In this document: piece after piece, positions 25,363 through 35,524 of the stretch
How positions within the stretch are numbered: position 1 is the first letter of the stretch
How the letters are laid out: every line of letters starts with the position of its first letter
Source: Gemmatimonadota bacterium
GTDB taxonomy: Bacteria > Gemmatimonadota > Gemmatimonadetes > Palauibacterales > Palauibacteraceae
Direction of reading: 5' to 3'
Length of the DNA: 64,000 nucleotides
Assembly (NCBI GenBank): GCA_039584685.1
Contig: JBDGXI010000001.1
Location: forward strand, 15,239 to 79,238
Position numbers and translations under genes: made by a program
Notes under the pieces: generated by a model
Database searches by the model: none
The model's input: the letters and a program-made list of their open reading frames with translations, nothing else
What the model was told of the DNA's origin: nothing

Positions 25363-27765
25363 ATGATCTCGCCGGGGCGTGTCCGATGCGCCGTCCCCCC
25401 TCCGGTCGCCGCGGCCGGGTTCTTTCTCGTACTAACCGCGGTCTTCTTCGACAGGGTCCTGTTTCGCGGCGAGGCGTTCTTCAGCCGGGACGTGGCTCCC
25501 TTCTTCTACCCCATGAAGCACTTCCTGGCCTCCACCGTGCGTGCCGGCGACCTGCCGCTGTGGAATCCGTGGGTGGCCAGCGGCGAGCCGTTCTTCGCCT
25601 CACTTCAGCCCGGCCTGCTGTATCCGGGCAGCCTGCTGCTGTACGGTCTTCCCATGCCGGCGGCCTTTGACTGGCTGGTAGTGCTGCACTATCCGCTGGC
25701 GGGCACAGGGCTGGCCCTGCTGCTCAGGCGGTGGGGCCACGGCTGGACGGCGGCGGTGCTGGGCGGATCGGTGTTCATGCTCGGCGGATTCTTCGCCTCG
25801 CTCGGGAACTTCGTGAACAACCTGCAGACGGTGGCGTGGCTGCCCTGGATCTTCATCGCGTGGGACAAGGTGCTCGACGGGGGGCGGATCAAGGACCTGC
25901 TGCTGTTCACGATCCTGTGTGGAATCGCGTTTCTCGGAGGTGAGCCCCAGATGCTGACCCTGGGTCTCGGCCTCGTGTTCGTCCACGGCCTGTTGGCCGT
26001 CGAAGCCCGCGACCTGGGGCGCGGCATGCAGACGGCGGCGTTCGCGATCGCGGGCATCCTGGCCGTAGCCCTGGTGGCGGTGCAACTGCTTCCGTTCGCG
26101 GAGTACATGAGCCACTCCGTGCGTCGCCTCCCGATCGAGCTGGAGTACGCTTCGGCACGCTCGCTCGAGCCAGTCGGGGCCCTGCACCTGCTGCTGCCGC
26201 CGGCCCTGCGGAGCGGAGCACACGGCTTCTCCACCCACTTCATGGCCAGCTCGGAAGTGCCATGGATCCTGAGCGCCTATGCCGGCGGCATTACCCTGGT
26301 CCTGGCGCTGATCGGAGTTCTGCGAGGCCGGGGCCTCCGCTGGACCGCATTCTGGATCGCGGTCTCGGCCGTGTCCGTTCTCCTGGCTCTCGGGAGCCAC
26401 AGCCCCCTGTATCGCTTCCTGTTCGAGTGGATCCCTCCGTTCCGCCCGTTCCGCTACCCGGAGAAATTCCTCCTGATCGGAGCCCTGGCCGTGTCCGTGT
26501 TCGCCGCCCAGGGAACCGACCGGTGGCTCGAAATCGGCCAACGGCCTGCCGAGGAAGGCGGGATTCCGCGAAGGGCGAGCGTGTGGCTGCCCATCCTGGC
26601 CGGCGGTGCGCTGTACATAGGCCTCGCCGCGAGCCTGGCATGGGTCGACGGACTTCTCCCCGCCGCCTGTGGCGATTGGCTGGGCGAGGCGCTGCTGTGC
26701 GAGGATATGGCGGGTGCGACGGGGCTGTATGCCGGAATCGCCATGCGGATCGCGACTCTGGTCGTCTGCCTGGGCGTCGTGACCTGGCTGTACCGGTCGG
26801 GCCGGCTGCGGCGCAGTCTCGCGTCGGCGATCGTCGTGGCGCTCGCGGTGGTCGATCTGACGCTCGCTCACCGTGAAGTGAACCCGTCGGTGGAGAGCGA
26901 CGTGTACGTGACCGCTCCGTGGACGGCCGACGCGCTCGACGAGCTGATGTTTCCCCGGGGCGACGTGCGGTTCCGCGGCTCGCCTCATCACGCGGCCATG
27001 GGGAGCATCGTGACCGTGCGGGGCGCCTGGGAACTGTCCAACATGTACCTGGACTACCAGACGATGGGACCGAACGTGGGGCAGATCTTCGGGTTCCCGA
27101 TGCAGGACGGCCTCCAGGGAGTGGAGCTCATCTCCGTGGCTCTGACGAACGAGGCGGCGTTGCGCGCGTGGAGCGACGACCCCCTGCGGTTTCTTCAGGC
27201 GATGAATGTCGGTTTCTACGCCGACGCCACGGTGAGCGCGGATTCGATCGCGGGCCTCACTCCGGCGGCCTCGCACCCCGAGCTACCGATCCGGATCTAC
27301 GCGGTGCCGGATCCGGTAGAGCGTCTGTATCTCGTGGGTGACTACGAAGTGCGGGACGGCCAGGCCGCGGCGCTCCGCCGTGTCTTCGAAGACGACTTCG
27401 CGCTGGGCGAAACGGTCGTCCTGGAGATCGAGCCCGGGGTCGAGATCGATTCGACGGCCTCCGGCAGCATCCTGTCGCGCGCGGACTTCGCGAACCGGGT
27501 CACCACAAGAGTGAGCGCATCCGGGCCGATGCTGGCCGTGCTCAGCGATCGGTGGTACCCGGGCTGGAAGGCGACGGTCGACGGCGTCGAAGTACCGATG
27601 CTGCGAGCCAACGGCGTCTTCAGGGCCGTACCGATTCCGGCCGGCGTCAGCGATGTGGTGTTCAGCTTCGAGCCGGGCTCGATACTCCTCGGCGCGGCGA
27701 TCAGCGTGGCGGGCCTGCTTGCCCTCGCTGCGACGTGGGTCATGGCCCGGAGCCAGACGGTATGA
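25363..27765 (+). CDS. YfhO-family polytopic membrane protein (GT-C-like glycosyltransferase)
   Basis: FFSRDVAPFFYP, LPLWNPW..GEPF, RYPEKF, C-terminal LSDRWYPGWKATVDG..ANGVFRAVPIPAG..VVFSFEP typical of YfhO. Confidence 0.85.
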   Translation: MISPGRVRCAVPPPVAAAGFFLVLTAVFFDRVLFRGEAFFSRDVAPFFYPMKHFLASTVRAGDLPLWNPWVASGEPFFASLQPGLLYPGSLLLYGLPMPAAFDWLVVLHYPLAGTGLALLLRRWGHGWTAAVLGGSVFMLGGFFASLGNFVNNLQTVAWLPWIFIAWDKVLDGGRIKDLLLFTILCGIAFLGGEPQMLTLGLGLVFVHGLLAVEARDLGRGMQTAAFAIAGILAVALVAVQLLPFAEYMSHSVRRLPIELEYASARSLEPVGALHLLLPPALRSGAHGFSTHFMASSEVPWILSAYAGGITLVLALIGVLRGRGLRWTAFWIAVSAVSVLLALGSHSPLYRFLFEWIPPFRPFRYPEKFLLIGALAVSVFAAQGTDRWLEIGQRPAEEGGIPRRASVWLPILAGGALYIGLAASLAWVDGLLPAACGDWLGEALLCEDMAGATGLYAGIAMRIATLVVCLGVVTWLYRSGRLRRSLASAIVVALAVVDLTLAHREVNPSVESDVYVTAPWTADALDELMFPRGDVRFRGSPHHAAMGSIVTVRGAWELSNMYLDYQTMGPNVGQIFGFPMQDGLQGVELISVALTNEAALRAWSDDPLRFLQAMNVGFYADATVSADSIAGLTPAASHPELPIRIYAVPDPVERLYLVGDYEVRDGQAAALRRVFEDDFALGETVVLEIEPGVEIDSTASGSILSRADFANRVTTRVSASGPMLAVLSDRWYPGWKATVDGVEVPMLRANGVFRAVPIPAGVSDVVFSFEPGSILLGAAISVAGLLALAATWVMARSQTV

Positions 27766-33551: not shown

Positions 33552-35524
33552 GCGGTCCACGCCCCGGACGGGTGCTCGGCTGGTTTCTGCTGCTGGTGCC
33601 TCTGGTTCCGCTGTCCTGGCTGTTCGGCGAGATCGATCGGGCCCGCGGCCTGGTACCGCCCTCCGAGGCTCTGTTGGGGGCCTTCGTGTTCGGCGCGCTC
33701 GCCTTGCTGGGCGCCCGGTTGTTCCCGGCCGGGCTGCCCGAACGCGCGCTCACCGCTCTCGAGCGCGAGCGGGGTGCGGGAGCTCTCGTCGCCCGCGGGG
33801 CCGTCCCGCTGCTTCTGGTTCTGCTACTCGCCACCTCGATCCTGGCGTTCGCCCGCCGACCGCTGCTGATCGACAGCGTCATCCAGCTGTTCCAGGCGCG
33901 GATCTTCGCGTCGGGGCACCTGTATGCGGGTGCCCCGCCCGGAGAGGCCTTCTTCGCCGTCCAGCACATGCTCGTGGATGGAGGGCGGTGGTATTCCCAG
34001 TATCCACCCGGACACTCAGCGATCCTGGGCCTCGGGGTGGGACTCGGCGTGGCATGGCTGGTGCCGGTGGCCCTGTCCGTCGGGACCGCCCTGCTCCTGT
34101 ACGGTTTCGCCCGCCGGGCCTATGATCTGGCCACGGCCCGCCTGACGGTGATCCTTCTCGCCCTGGCTCCGTTCTTCTGGTTCATGGGGGCAAGTCACAT
34201 GAACCACGTCTCGGCCCTGTTCTTCGTGTCAGCCTTCCTGTACCTGCTGGTTCGATGGGAGGAACGAGGCGCCCCGGGGATCCTCCTGGGCGCCGGCCTG
34301 GCGATCGGGGCGGCCTTCCTCTCGCGCCCTCTAACCGCGGTCGCGGTCGGCCTGGCGATGGCCCCGTTCGTTCTTCTCACGGCCTTCAGAAAGCGCGACA
34401 AAGTCTCGGCGGGCGCGGGTCTCGCCGGCGTGCTGGTGGCCGTGTTCCTGTATCTGGCCTACAACGCGGCCACCACGGGCGATCCGCTGATGCCCGGATA
34501 CATCAAGCTGTGGGGCGCGGATCACGGTCTGGGCTTTCACTCGACGCCGTGGGGCGAGGTCCACACGTTGCTCGCCGGCCTGCGCAACGAGATCACGGAC
34601 CTGGCTCTTCTCTCCGCTCTGCTGTTCGAGTGGCCGGTCTCGGCACTGATTCCAGCCGCACTGCTTTTCGCGGCGGGATGGGGCTCGAGGAAGTGGGACA
34701 CCCGCCTCCTGGCCGGATTCCTGGCCCTGCCGGCCGCCTACCTGTTCTACTGGCACAGGGATGCGTTTCTCGGCCCGCGCTATCTCTATTCGGGACTCGC
34801 CTTCCTGGTTCCGCTGACGGCCCGGGGCCTCATCGAGGTGTTTCGCCGGGCGGGGGATCGCCACCTGTGGGGAGGCTCGGAACTGACCCGTGTTCCGGTG
34901 TCGAGCGTTGCCGGCATGCTGCTGCTGCTGTGCCTCGCGTACGCCGCGGCCTATTCGACGCCCCGCAGGTTCCACGTGTACCGCACCGGGCTGGCCAGCA
35001 TGAAGGTTGACCTGGCCGCGGAGGTCGGGCACCGGGGCATATCCGATGCCGTCATCTTCGTTCCGGTGAGCTGGGGCAATCGTCTGCTGGCCCGGATGCG
35101 AGGGCTTGGAGTGTCCGCCTCCGGCGCGGAGAAGGCATACCGCCAGAGTGATCACTGTGCCCTGGAGTTGACGGTCCGTCGTGCCGAGCGGGAGAGGTGG
35201 ACGCCTTCCCGGACGGCGGCCGCGATCGCCGAGCTTGGGCCCGGGGGAGAGCCGGTCCCCGCCTCGAGTCCGCTGACCAACGGAGATCCGACGCTTCGGC
35301 TGACCGCGGGCACTTCGCCGGCTCCCGAATGCATGGACGAGATCGCGTATGACCGGGCCGGCTACTCGAACTTCGCGCCGTTCCTGGCCGATCAGGATCC
35401 ATCGCTCGCGGGTCCCCTGGTGATCGCCCGGGACCTGCGGCGGCGCAACCGGGAGTTGCTGGACGCGTATCCTGGTCGCCGGGCGTTCACCTATCGGAAC
35501 GGCGAGTTCCTCCCGGCACGCTGA
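33548..35524 (+). CDS. GT-C (PMT_2/ArnT-like) membrane glycosyltransferase
   Basis: IDS..FQARIFASG, SQYPPG, MNHVS, LSRPLT, GYIKLW, GPRYL; GTGA overlap. Confidence 0.75.
   Translation: MSGPRPGRVLGWFLLLVPLVPLSWLFGEIDRARGLVPPSEALLGAFVFGALALLGARLFPAGLPERALTALERERGAGALVARGAVPLLLVLLLATSILAFARRPLLIDSVIQLFQARIFASGHLYAGAPPGEAFFAVQHMLVDGGRWYSQYPPGHSAILGLGVGLGVAWLVPVALSVGTALLLYGFARRAYDLATARLTVILLALAPFFWFMGASHMNHVSALFFVSAFLYLLVRWEERGAPGILLGAGLAIGAAFLSRPLTAVAVGLAMAPFVLLTAFRKRDKVSAGAGLAGVLVAVFLYLAYNAATTGDPLMPGYIKLWGADHGLGFHSTPWGEVHTLLAGLRNEITDLALLSALLFEWPVSALIPAALLFAAGWGSRKWDTRLLAGFLALPAAYLFYWHRDAFLGPRYLYSGLAFLVPLTARGLIEVFRRAGDRHLWGGSELTRVPVSSVAGMLLLLCLAYAAAYSTPRRFHVYRTGLASMKVDLAAEVGHRGISDAVIFVPVSWGNRLLARMRGLGVSASGAEKAYRQSDHCALELTVRRAERERWTPSRTAAAIAELGPGGEPVPASSPLTNGDPTLRLTAGTSPAPECMDEIAYDRAGYSNFAPFLADQDPSLAGPLVIARDLRRRNRELLDAYPGRRAFTYRNGEFLPAR

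Follow-up and report, generated by a model that had tools for sequence, protein, structure and literature searches.

A candidate extracytoplasmic O-glycosylation operon lies within the type IV pilus gene cluster of Gemmatimonadota

The type IV pilus (T4P) cluster of an uncultured Gemmatimonadota bacterium contains a six-gene cassette (G1-G6) that probably encodes an extracytoplasmic, lipid-monosaccharide-dependent O-glycosylation operon for the pilus and its Ser/Thr-rich pilin. The cassette is very likely a polyprenyl-phosphate-sugar/GT-C module, and we are moderately confident, on the basis of gene neighborhood, that pilin is its main acceptor. It comprises one polyprenyl-phosphate sugar synthase (G4) and five GT-C membrane glycosyltransferases that fall into four families (G1, G2 with G3, G5, and G6). 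Because linkage to pilA holds across the phylum, the operon most likely sugar-coats the pilus.

The stretch of DNA analyzed here, hereafter the window, is 64,000 nucleotides long and includes a complete T4P cluster, in which the cassette is placed in the order pilBTC, pilSR, pilA, cassette, two minor pilins, pilMNOPQ (Table 1). The source organism is known from MAGs only. The six cassette genes (25363-35524) all lie on the + strand, and each of the five internal junctions is a 4-nt start/stop overlap, reading ATGA, ATGA, GTGA, TTGA and GTGA from G1/G2 to G5/G6, whereas only 5 of the 28 other + strand junctions in the rest of the window overlap by 4 nt. Such 4-nt overlaps are found again in close relatives (L001, L002, L003 and L032). 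An earlier note on this DNA had described six genes with an (A/G/T)TGA overlap at every junction, and its coordinates and junctions match ours; its family calls are borne out by Pfam/NCBIfam profiles, PDB matches, and AF2 models with Foldseek. The minor pilins it placed downstream are real, one being GspH/FimT-like and the other a small N_methyl pilin whose gene is kept in 11 loci. As the note also had it, none of the sizeable ORFs of the window encodes a nucleotide-sugar enzyme, a GT4, a GtrA-type flippase or a Wzy_C oligosaccharyltransferase (OTase).

Table 1. Features of the pilus cluster and the cassette, in window coordinates
Feature	Position	Strand	Basis
pilB, pilT, pilC, Rrf2 regulator, hypothetical, pilS, pilR (sigma-54 activator), upstream	16215..24629	+	Pfam
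pilA, major type IV pilin	24873..25244	+	G/FTLIELL signal in translation; N_methyl 2.5e-9
GC-rich stem-loop, pilA-G1 spacer	25287..25316	+	RNAalifold
G1, 800-aa YfhO-like GT-C	25363..27765	+	PF09586 2e-10; AF2/Foldseek
G2, 560-aa PMT_2-type GT-C	27762..29444	+	PF13231 7e-8
G3, 536-aa PMT_2-type GT-C	29441..31051	+	PF13231 4e-6
G4, 325-aa GT2 polyprenyl-phosphate glycosyltransferase, GtrB/PgfS/ArnC type	31048..32025	+	Glycos_transf_2, PF00535 3e-31
G5, 509-aa GT-C, ArnT-fold	32022..33551	+	AF2 model, Foldseek
G6, 658-aa PMT_2-type GT-C, LA_3751-like	33548..35524	+	PF13231 5e-11
GspH/FimT-like minor pilin	35617..36075	+	PF12019 8.9e-6; G/VTLPELL signal
Small pilin-like protein (G/FGLPEVV)	36198..36527	+	N_methyl 6.9e-5
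pilM, pilN, pilO, probable pilP, secretin pilQ, downstream	36631..41149	+	Pfam

PilA is a 123-residue prepilin (MLRNTKG/FTLIELL start) with a mature form of 116 residues that lacks cysteine. Ser and Thr account for 29% of its globular half versus a 12% background, and T75, T76, S77, T95 and S101 are invariant among 37 unique orthologs and paralogs. The TTS motif at mature residues 68-70 is invariant, and this region is O-glycosylated in other T4 pilins (PMC7203116). An ORF at 24662-25366 was discarded as pilA since it is a wrong-frame artefact; its stop gives rise to the ‘ATGA’ at 25363. With the true pilA ending 118 nt before G1, the two genes are not translationally coupled. The intervening spacer has a predicted folding energy of -58 kcal/mol, and the conserved stem-loop within it is predicted to form 13 pairs, with compensatory changes in 7 (RNAalifold, 18 loci), and has a T-run 3' of the stem in L027, L029 and L033. 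It resembles an intrinsic terminator or attenuator, so co-transcription of pilA with the cassette is not assured. A hairpin at this position would hold expression of the cassette enzymes far below that of the pilin. The cassette does lie directly behind pilA, as previously noted, but with a 118-nt spacer and its hairpin in between.

G4 is predicted to be the sole cytoplasmic-face enzyme of the cassette, making the lipid-linked monosaccharide donor. Profile and PDB matches place it nearer to GtrB/PgfS than to ArnC. Its best NCBIfam match is PgfS (3e-69; 233 bits versus an equivalog cut-off of 500), whereas the ArnC profile gives 7e-55 and 186 bits, far under the equivalog cut-off of 529; in the PDB, it matches GtrB (5EKP) at 8e-80 across residues 4-303 and ArnC at 2e-51. 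The C-terminal TM helices are at residues 218-283. The sugar is likely to be a hexose or HexNAc, given that GtrB, which tops the matches, is an Und-P-glucose synthase.

In each of the five GT-Cs, an acidic residue that lies 8-12 positions past TM1 is invariant (G1 D43, G2 D41, G3 D38/E39, G5 E42 and G6 D109). An acidic residue shortly after TM1 is the canonical GT-C catalytic position, and all five enzymes therefore appear catalytically competent. G1, whose relatives carry the name ‘YfhO family protein,’ matches the YfhO profile with 40.2 bits (cut-off 28.5) in a region confined to its C-terminal 50 residues, and its best NCBIfam match, PgfM1, reaches 20 bits versus an equivalog cut-off of 1400. 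It consists of ~12 TM helices, a β-rich periplasmic domain and a C-terminal TM helix, with R42 as invariant as D43. The top Foldseek matches of its AF2 model (pLDDT 84.9, pTM 0.88) are AftD (1e-8), EmbC, STT3, AftA and PglB. G2, G3 and G6 score 33.3, 27.4 and 43.5 bits, respectively, against PMT_2 (cut-off 26.1). G2 has conserved HPP and HDGVRLFLP motifs, whereas G3 has an invariant W37-D38-E39 that includes a PMT-like DE motif. G2 and G3 are full-length paralogs (hhalign probability 100%, E 4e-79) and, as they never occur apart, may form a heterodimer by analogy with Pmt1-Pmt2 or EmbA-EmbB. G6 bears a weak resemblance to the Leptospira LA_3751/LA_3752 family (NF047440, 4e-12, under cut-off). 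G5 has no Pfam match and belongs to a family uncurated in Pfam and NCBIfam, although a large one, with 9792 cluster representatives at E<=1e-3 in a profile search; the top Foldseek matches of its model (pLDDT 88.4, pTM 0.90) are ArnT 5F15 (2e-7, TM 0.56), STT3B, AglB, DPY19, PimE and AftB.

Among the Gemmatimonadota loci found via G1, all ~30 at species level for which an upstream flank is available have the order pilS-pilR-pilA-G1-G2-G3-G4 (G1 identity 45-91%). A search from PilA homologs (62-66% identity) gave pilSR, 2-4 tandem pilins and G1-G2-MT-G3-G6-G4 in three of three contigs, where G1 identity is 34-35%. Synteny with pilA across the phylum, which the earlier note had put forward as a check, is thus retained to 34% G1 identity, with pilA followed by G1, G2, G3 and G4 in every Gemmatimonadota locus with informative flanks. 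Since gene content between pilC and pilS varies among these loci, the linkage does not merely reflect recent common ancestry. The invariant core is G1-G4, whereas G5, G6 and a methyltransferase (MT) are variably present; G5 is missing in many relatives and G6 is kept in most, but not all. Outside Gemmatimonadota, only 3 of 31 distant G1-like genes adjoin a pilin, a point against pilin as the acceptor; in its favor, independent pilin-YfhO adjacencies are seen in other phyla (L036, L040 and L058).

A single polyprenyl-phosphate-sugar donor serving several GT-Cs is also a feature of the actinobacterial and eukaryotic Ppm1/Dpm1 plus PMT systems and of mycobacterial Emb/Aft/PimE. PMTs bear a DE motif and function as paralog heterodimers, and the cassette resembles them in the G2/G3 pair and in D38-E39 of G3. 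Structural matches include AftD, EmbC, AftA, AftB, PimE and Pmt4. At the sequence level, the cassette has no detectable resemblance to PMT, Emb or Aft proteins of solved structure, the MIR and carbohydrate-binding domains of these enzymes were not detected in it, and its presumed acceptor differs in being a pilin in a diderm. An analogy with GPI chemistry, phage shielding, and modification of SprA had been suggested as well, but the sequence lends them no support.

The strongest experimental precedent, absent from the earlier note, is provided by the streptococcal YfhO-type systems PgfS/PgfM1 and GtrB/PgtC2, in which YfhO-type GT-Cs work with a GtrB/PgfS enzyme to attach O-linked sugars to Ser/Thr-rich protein segments outside the cytoplasm (PMC12041528). 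Pgf (PgfS, PgfE, PgfM1 and PgfM2) has two YfhO-family GT-Cs, and its substrates are encoded beside the enzymes (PMC12041528). Both systems are from monoderm Firmicutes, and the cassette scores far under the PgfS and PgfM1 equivalog cut-offs; it lacks an epimerase and has three additional, non-YfhO GT-C families and a presumed type IV pilin substrate. GtrA/GtrB/Gtr*, CsbB/GtcA/YfhO and ArnC/ArnEF/ArnT share the same logic, with a GT2 making an Und-P-monosaccharide that a GT-C transfers extracytoplasmically (PMC11127046, PMC5836110). Unlike these three-component Gtr-type systems, whose acceptors are polysaccharide, LTA or lipid A, the cassette has one synthase for five transferases and no flippase gene in the locus or window.

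TfpW from P. aeruginosa group IV (Pa5196/PA7), a pilin D-arabinofuranosyltransferase, is a GT-C encoded just downstream of pilA; as proposed for the cassette, it uses a periplasmic polyprenyl-phosphate monosaccharide donor to glycosylate Ser/Thr of the major pilin without an Und-PP-oligosaccharide or Wzy_C OTase (bioRxiv 10.1101/2020.04.19.049825). However, TfpW is a single enzyme rather than five GT-Cs from four families, and its donor comes from the PRPP/DprE1/E2 pathway rather than from a GtrB-type GT2. It also carries a C-terminal TPR domain as well as DDX and YX6PFX7P motifs. The TPR domain and YX6PFX7P motif are found in none of G1-G6, no cassette gene belongs to the TfpW family, and the comparison drawn in the earlier note survives as analogy only.

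ArnT acts on lipid A and Gtr enzymes act on O-antigen. That the YfhO, ArnT and Gtr families also modify non-protein acceptors counts against the pilin reading, as do the hairpin behind pilA and the lack of a flippase gene in the locus. The cassette enzymes could decorate a non-protein glycoconjugate (lipid A/LPS core, O-antigen, exopolysaccharide or glycolipid), much as Arn, Gtr or CsbB/YfhO systems do, with the pil location reflecting co-regulation with surface motility, but we consider this unlikely. In its favor, ArnT heads the structural matches of G5, G4 resembles ArnC, lipoteichoic acid is the acceptor of the founding YfhO members (PMC5836110), and the GT2-MT-GT-C trio that includes a distant G5-like gene (L073) has no pilins in its neighborhood. 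However, the window has no genes for ArnA, ArnB, ArnD or Wzx/Wzy, nor for the initiation or export of polysaccharide, G4 is nearer to GtrB/PgfS, and the pilA linkage outlasts changes in the genes around the pil cluster. General O-glycosylation of periplasmic or surface proteins, akin to actinobacterial Ppm1/PMT or streptococcal GtrB/PgtC2, with many Ser/Thr-rich exported substrates of which pilin would be just one or at most the commonest, also seems improbable. A housekeeping system would not be expected to lie strictly between pilA and the minor pilins in every informative genome, and in relatives tandem pilin expansion is seen directly beside the cassette. In favor of this reading, PgtC2 and PgfM1, both YfhO-type, act on several membrane proteins that are unrelated to one another (PMC12041528), the presence of four GT-C families could point to more than one class of acceptor, and the hairpin would transcriptionally buffer the cassette from pilA.

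If pilin is the acceptor, the GT-Cs might act in parallel, adding single sugars at different pilin sites or to different pilins (major, minor or paralogous), a tentative possibility under which G5 and G6 would be site- or substrate-specific extras. PilA has many conserved Ser/Thr positions, 2-4 pilin paralogs plus minor pilins lie beside the cassette in relatives, G5 and G6 are independently gained and lost, and Gtr GT-Cs serve different positions from one Und-P-Glc donor (PMC11127046), whereas TfpW polymerizes its sugar on pilin (bioRxiv 10.1101/2020.04.19.049825). Also against parallel action, the mycobacterial GT-C sets work serially. Since many relatives dispense with G5 and G6, and G2/G3 are co-occurring paralogs, a single assembly line of up to five enzymes, as envisaged in the earlier note, is only one option, and enzymes working in parallel at separate sites would fit just as well. 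To our knowledge, five GT-Cs exceed the need of any known pilin system, which weighs against the pilin reading.

In the pilin O-glycosylation operon that we favor, G4 would, by homology, load undecaprenyl phosphate at the cytoplasmic face with a sugar taken from a UDP-sugar. The Und-P-sugar would presumably be flipped by a protein encoded outside the window, after which the periplasmic GT-Cs would pass single sugars from it to Ser/Thr of PilA while the pilin is still membrane-anchored, before polymerization; minor pilins may be modified too. This transfer step is suggested by the fold of the enzymes and by conservation of both their catalytic acidic residues and the gene neighborhood. G5, G6 and, in relatives, the SAM methyltransferase would be add-on modules that extend, branch or add sites, and as such would diversify the pilus surface.

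The six glycosylation genes of the cassette (G1-G6) lie within a complete type IV pilus (T4P) cluster, which reads pilB, pilT, pilC, an Rrf2-family regulator gene, a hypothetical gene, pilS, pilR (encoding a sigma-54 activator) and pilA on the 5′ side, and two minor pilin genes, pilM, pilN, pilO, a probable pilP and pilQ on the 3′ side. The earlier note had described six genes joined by 4-nt overlaps, and verification of the coordinates together with direct reading of the five junctions (in order ATGA, ATGA, GTGA, TTGA and GTGA) confirms this arrangement. Although -4 overlaps are not unusual in the genome, being found at 5 of 28 other plus-strand junctions in the window, all five consecutive cassette junctions (5/5) have them, and the genes thus form a tight operon. 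The overlaps are also found in close relatives. The GC content of the cassette is not anomalous (the window is 64-70% G+C) and therefore gives no pointer to recent horizontal transfer. The AT skew is strongly negative over positions 26001-36000 (-0.09 to -0.28) and near zero in the flanks, probably because hydrophobic membrane proteins use T-rich codons.

Coordinates of features in the window and, where an L number is given, in numbered loci of relatives
Feature	Position	Strand	Details
SprA-like gene	8929-15285	+	2118 aa; directly 5′ of pilus cluster
Sigma-54-like site	16094-16109	+	GGGCACGCCGCTTGCT; ~105 nt upstream of pilB
Rrf2-family regulator and 143-aa hypothetical	20379-21226	+	between pilC and pilS
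Wrong-frame ORF	24662-25366	+	234 codons
pilA	24873-25244		123-aa ORF; MLRNTKG then FTLIELLIVVVIIG (cleavage after G); N_methyl 2.5e-9
Spacer stem-loop	25287-25316		GC-rich
G1	25363-27765	+	junctions read directly
G2	27762-29444	+	junctions read directly
G3	29441-31051	+	junctions read directly
G4	31048-32025	+	junctions read directly
G5	32022-33551	+	junctions read directly
G6	33548-35524	+	junctions read directly
GspH/FimT-like minor pilin gene	35617-36075		directly on 3′ side of cassette
Small pilin-like gene	36198-36527		after GspH/FimT-like gene
Methyltransferase gene	L015:16584-17405
Methyltransferase gene	L018:7244-8125
Methyltransferase gene	L019:7067-7927
Methyltransferase gene	L020:12444-13259
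Methyltransferase gene	L021:16665-17513
Methyltransferase gene	L031:18194-19072
Methyltransferase gene	L069, L071, L072
Tandem pilA paralogues	L069:9019-10354		directly upstream of cassette
Tandem pilA paralogues	L071:10001-12784		directly upstream of cassette
Tandem pilA paralogues	L072:8226-10351		directly upstream of cassette
G3, apparent frameshift	L005:14085-15693
G6, shortened	L005:18193-19854
Pilin and glycosylation gene cluster	L058:1480-8878
GT2-methyltransferase-GT-C trio	L073:6357-9539

G1 does follow pilA directly, as the earlier note stated, but an apparent pilA-G1 overlap at the ATGA at 25363 stems from a wrong-frame ORF. This ORF was rejected as pilA, having neither pilin features nor a Pfam or other family match; it overlaps the true pilA out of frame and runs as far as the ATGA where G1 begins. 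Its Arg/Gly-rich translation looks like the noise that off-frame reading of high-GC DNA typically gives, and the ORF could trick gene callers into a false overlap. Since pilA occupies another frame, 118 nt separate its stop from the G1 start. The stem-loop within this spacer is kept in 18 loci, where 7 of its 13 pairs show compensatory changes, and looks like a putative terminator or attenuator because some relatives have a T-run 3′ of the stem. A sigma-54 promoter 5′ of pilA, expected given PilR, was rejected, as the pilR-pilA interval contains no match to TGGCAC-N5-TTGC at two or fewer mismatches. One site with a single mismatch to the -24/-12 consensus precedes pilB; PilR adjoins pilA, yet no similar site precedes pilA. 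Consensus matches across the window are not above chance.

The mature major pilin is very short (116 residues), and both it and all 37 relatives examined lack cysteine and hence a disulphide-bonded D-region. Its globular part is rich in Ser/Thr (29% vs 12% in other window proteins), and T75, T76, S77, T95 and S101 (prepilin numbering) are invariant across 37 unique PilA orthologues and paralogues. Judged by position only, the TTS motif (mature residues 68-70) would fall in the alpha-beta 'glycosylation loop' region, the O-glycan site on Thermus and Neisseria pilins (PMC7203116).

The enzymology inferred in the earlier note proved largely right when G1-G6 were assigned by family, structure model and profile. 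G4 is, by homology, a GT2 polyprenyl-phosphate glycosyltransferase of the GtrB/CsbB/ArnC type, with a Glycos_transf_2 domain (PF00535, 3e-31) and C-terminal transmembrane (TM) segments at 218-283. It matches the solved undecaprenyl phosphate (Und-P)-glucose synthase GtrB over its full length (PDB 5EKP; 8e-80 over residues 4-303) and PDB ArnC at 2e-51, and its NCBIfam matches to PgfS (3e-69) and ArnC (7e-55) both fall under the equivalog cut-offs.

The other five genes encode GT-C enzymes. G1 matches YfhO (PF09586; 40.2 bits vs a gathering cut-off of 28.5) solely over its C-terminal 50 residues (732-781); the domain is nevertheless precomputed on nearly all of 120 G1 homologues, and relatives are annotated 'YfhO family protein'. 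G1 is not an equivalog of PgfM1 or PgfM2 by the NCBIfam cut-offs (20.3 and 14.2 bits vs 1400 and 1500). The PMT_2 family (PF13231, gathering cut-off 26.1 bits) is matched by G2 (33.3), G3 (27.4) and G6 (43.5), whereas G5 has no Pfam match, PF13231 included. None of the five has detectable similarity to a solved structure in PDB sequence and profile searches: with phmmer and profile hmmsearch, G2, G5 and G6 gave nothing at E≤1, and the sole G3 match was TMEM260 (E 3.1). Fold comparison was therefore the only working route. All high-confidence matches of the G1 AlphaFold2 model (pLDDT 84.9, pTM 0.88; beta-rich C-terminal domain) are GT-C enzymes at probability 1.0 (AftD at 1e-8, EmbC, STT3, AftA and PglB). 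The G5 model (pLDDT 88.4, pTM 0.90) likewise matches GT-C folds only at that probability, with ArnT (2e-7, TM 0.56), STT3B, AglB and DPY19, followed by PimE, AftB and ALG3/9.

In profile-profile comparison G2 and G3 are full-length paralogues (probability 100%, E 4e-79), G5 shows remote kinship to G3 over the N-terminal 230 residues (probability 82%), and G1 and G6 are distinct from the rest, so that the five GT-Cs represent four families. An acidic residue shortly after TM1, in the first extracytoplasmic loop, is the usual GT-C catalytic position. Invariant acidic residues occur there in every enzyme (G1 D43, G2 D41, G3 D38-E39, G5 E42 and G6 D109), and none of the sequences looks like that of a dead paralogue. 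G5 might have passed for a lineage-restricted orphan, with 78 hits in a first word-indexed search, but an exhaustive profile search overturned this, returning 9792 cluster representatives at E≤1e-3 and 1867 at E≤1e-30. Because most of these have no Pfam or NCBIfam assignment, G5 belongs to a large uncurated GT-C family.

The host is an uncultured Gemmatimonadota, with its closest relatives filed under Candidatus Palauibacterales, 'marine benthic group' or Ca. Benthicola. Scanning with a G1 profile at one genome per species returned 68 loci, and the order pilS-pilR-pilA-G1-G2-G3-G4 is present in every Gemmatimonadota locus with an upstream flank (~30 loci, G1 identity 45-91%). In the reverse direction, three PilA homologues (62-66% identity) lie on contigs with pilS, pilR and 2-4 tandem pilins that continue G1-G2-methyltransferase-G3-G6-G4, with G1 only 34-35% identical. 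Synteny with pilA across the phylum, a check set beforehand, is thus borne out from both ends, in the ~30 loci reached via G1 and in 3/3 contigs reached via PilA. Between pilC and pilS, relatives hold other genes, for example an acetyltransferase gene, or chalcone-isomerase-like and hydrolase genes, making this a variable slot in an otherwise conserved cluster. Since these genes differ between lineages, the link is selectively maintained and not just the product of recent shared ancestry. Two near-identical Gemmatimonadota-type loci, L008 (labelled Akkermansiaceae) and that of protein P0160 (labelled Planctomycetaceae), are for that reason likely mis-binned. The G3 and G6 defects in L005 could be assembly error or decay.

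The presence of G5 and G6 differs among the relatives. Both G5 and G6 are present in L001-L003, L005, L008-L012, L030-L032, L034, L035 and L037, G5 without G6 in L018, L024 and L029, G6 without G5 in L013, L023, L027, L028 and L033, and neither in L015, L017, L019 and L022. In loci lacking both, the pilin C-terminus is '...VDVGGGxATEGKIQQN' instead of '...VGTGSSIEGKVQKSP'; covariation of the C-terminal Ser with G5/G6 was set aside because these loci form one clade and phylogeny confounds it. In many relatives, a gene for a class I SAM methyltransferase (Methyltransf_11, ~250-290 aa) lies within or right after the cassette, although this window has none. This suggests methylated sugars in those lineages, and as SAM is cytoplasmic, methylation would fall on the lipid-linked donor before flipping. 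Some more distant Gemmatimonadota have 2-4 tandem pilA paralogues, a pattern typical of pilin diversification.

A general pilin linkage of G1-like genes was rejected, as, beyond Gemmatimonadota, just 3 of 31 distant homologues adjoin a pilin gene. In L036 (a Planctomycetia MAG) the order is pilC, pilA and a YfhO-like gene whose product matches PF09586 over residues 22-636, and in L040 pilA precedes two YfhO-like genes. L058 (an unclassified MAG) is an independent case of several glycosylation enzymes clustered with pilins, in which several pilin genes and pilM are interspersed with genes for a Wzy_C-TPR OTase-like protein and two GT-Cs, one YfhO-like and one TMEM260-like. In L073, a distant G5-like GT-C forms part of a compact trio with no pilins nearby and with bacA (undecaprenyl-diphosphatase) ~3 kb upstream, suggesting that G5-type enzymes are general Und-P-sugar users. 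The occasional pilin link outside the phylum and the pilin-free trio indicate modular building blocks that have no intrinsic specificity for pilins.

The remaining genes of the window have housekeeping roles (SprA, serA-like, aroC, topA, trmFO/gid, xerC, hslVU, gcvT, clpXP, tig, htrA and dnaK). Nothing suggests that the SprA-like protein, a type IX secretion translocon (SprA_N 1.3e-23), belongs to the cassette. The earlier note reported no nucleotide-sugar enzyme, GT4, flippase or Wzy_C ligase, and this holds window-wide: Pfam finds no nucleotide-sugar enzyme, GT4 or Wzy_C ligase in any sizeable ORF, nor a flippase family (GtrA/GtcA, SMR ArnE/F or MATE). None of the few ORFs left without annotation encodes a multi-TM protein, and gaps in the relatives' cassettes contain no flippase, the methyltransferase being the only extra enzyme. 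A flippase could sit elsewhere in the genome.

The cassette follows the logic of three-component Gtr-type systems (PMC11127046). It has their GT2 synthase with C-terminal TM helices (G4) and GT-Cs whose first extracytoplasmic loop has a conserved acidic residue (G1-G3, G5 and G6), but a search of the locus did not turn up their dedicated small flippase. Functionally, the nearest precedents are TfpW and the streptococcal Pgf and GtrB/PgtC2 systems, in which a YfhO-type GT-C and a GtrB/PgfS synthase O-glycosylate Ser/Thr-rich extracytoplasmic protein regions (PMC12041528); the top NCBIfam matches of G4 and G1 are PgfS and PgfM1, yet far under the equivalog cut-offs. The comparison with TfpW drawn in the earlier note stands for the GT-C fold, the predicted lipid-monosaccharide donor and the gene position directly 3′ of pilA, but not for family membership. 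TfpW has a periplasmic TPR domain at its C-terminus, whereas none of G1-G6 matches a TPR family at E≤0.01, and a regex scan for its loop 4 motif, YX6PFX7P, gives no match in the five GT-Cs. As for the DDX motif of its periplasmic loop 1, a D[DE] pair within the first 130 residues occurs solely in G3. The GT-Cs were therefore rejected as TfpW homologues. Modification of lipid A with aminoarabinose by ArnC/ArnT would also employ a GT2 and a GT-C, but fails on the G4 score against ArnC (186 bits vs a cut-off of 529) and on the missing arn genes, as no formyltransferase/decarboxylase, aminotransferase, deformylase or SMR genes (arnA, arnB, arnD, arnE/F) adjoin the cassette. Ogt, which glycosylates pilin in cyanobacteria, is soluble and cytoplasmic and was rejected as unrelated (PMC9306852). 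A non-exhaustive full-text literature search gave no account of pilin-linked YfhO- or PMT_2-type cassettes, or of pilin glycosylation in Gemmatimonadota.

Glycosylation of pilin is the best supported reading and a reasonably probable one, its whole basis being the conserved neighbourhood and analogy. G4 would make an Und-P-sugar at the cytoplasmic face, its closeness to GtrB/PgfS suggesting a hexose or HexNAc. [quoted passage not shown] There the GT-Cs would pass single sugars to pilin Ser/Thr, possibly also onto sugars already attached, with G1, G2 and G3 as an invariant core and G5, G6 and the methyltransferase as exchangeable modules. Because neither G2 nor G3 is found without the other, they may plausibly pair as a heterodimer, like Pmt1-Pmt2 or EmbA-EmbB. 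The GT-Cs may act as a serial assembly line or in parallel on separate sites or pilins; the sequence fits both. Phage shielding has a precedent in glycosylated P. aeruginosa pili (bioRxiv 10.1101/150227) and is pure speculation for this cassette. Tentatively, and at rather low probability, the parts may combine into a branched pilin glycan built in the periplasm sugar by sugar from a single Und-P-monosaccharide donor, by a fixed three-GT-C core (the YfhO-type enzyme and a G2/G3 heterodimer) with exchangeable G5/G6. Such a glycan would be methylated in some lineages and would involve neither an Und-PP-oligosaccharide intermediate nor an oligosaccharyltransferase.

Pilin glycosylation alters pilus surface chemistry, bundling and phage susceptibility. 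To our knowledge, it has so far been explained by two routes, Wzy_C-type OTases (PglL/TfpO), which transfer the glycan en bloc, and TfpW, a single GT-C. The locus would add a third layout, more elaborate than these, in which one lipid-monosaccharide synthase feeds up to five GT-Cs from four families, embedded in the pilus cluster and conserved across a poorly studied, environmentally abundant phylum. The lipid-monosaccharide/GT-C chemistry and three-component logic are known and no concept is overturned; what is new is an unusually multi-enzyme, modular system fixed in the pilus cluster of a whole phylum. The relatives form a natural deletion series (core only, plus G5, plus G6, plus both, plus methyltransferase) for assigning functions, the context of the G5-like genes offers a lead to the function of a large GT-C family barely covered by Pfam/NCBIfam, and the compact gene set is a candidate for testing in glyco-engineering of pilins. 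If a branched glycan is indeed assembled in this way, the cassette would represent, in a diderm bacterium, the equivalent of the ALG/PMT assembly line of the ER lumen and of the GT-C assembly lines of mycobacteria. Modular gain and loss of enzymes would then diversify the pilus surface.
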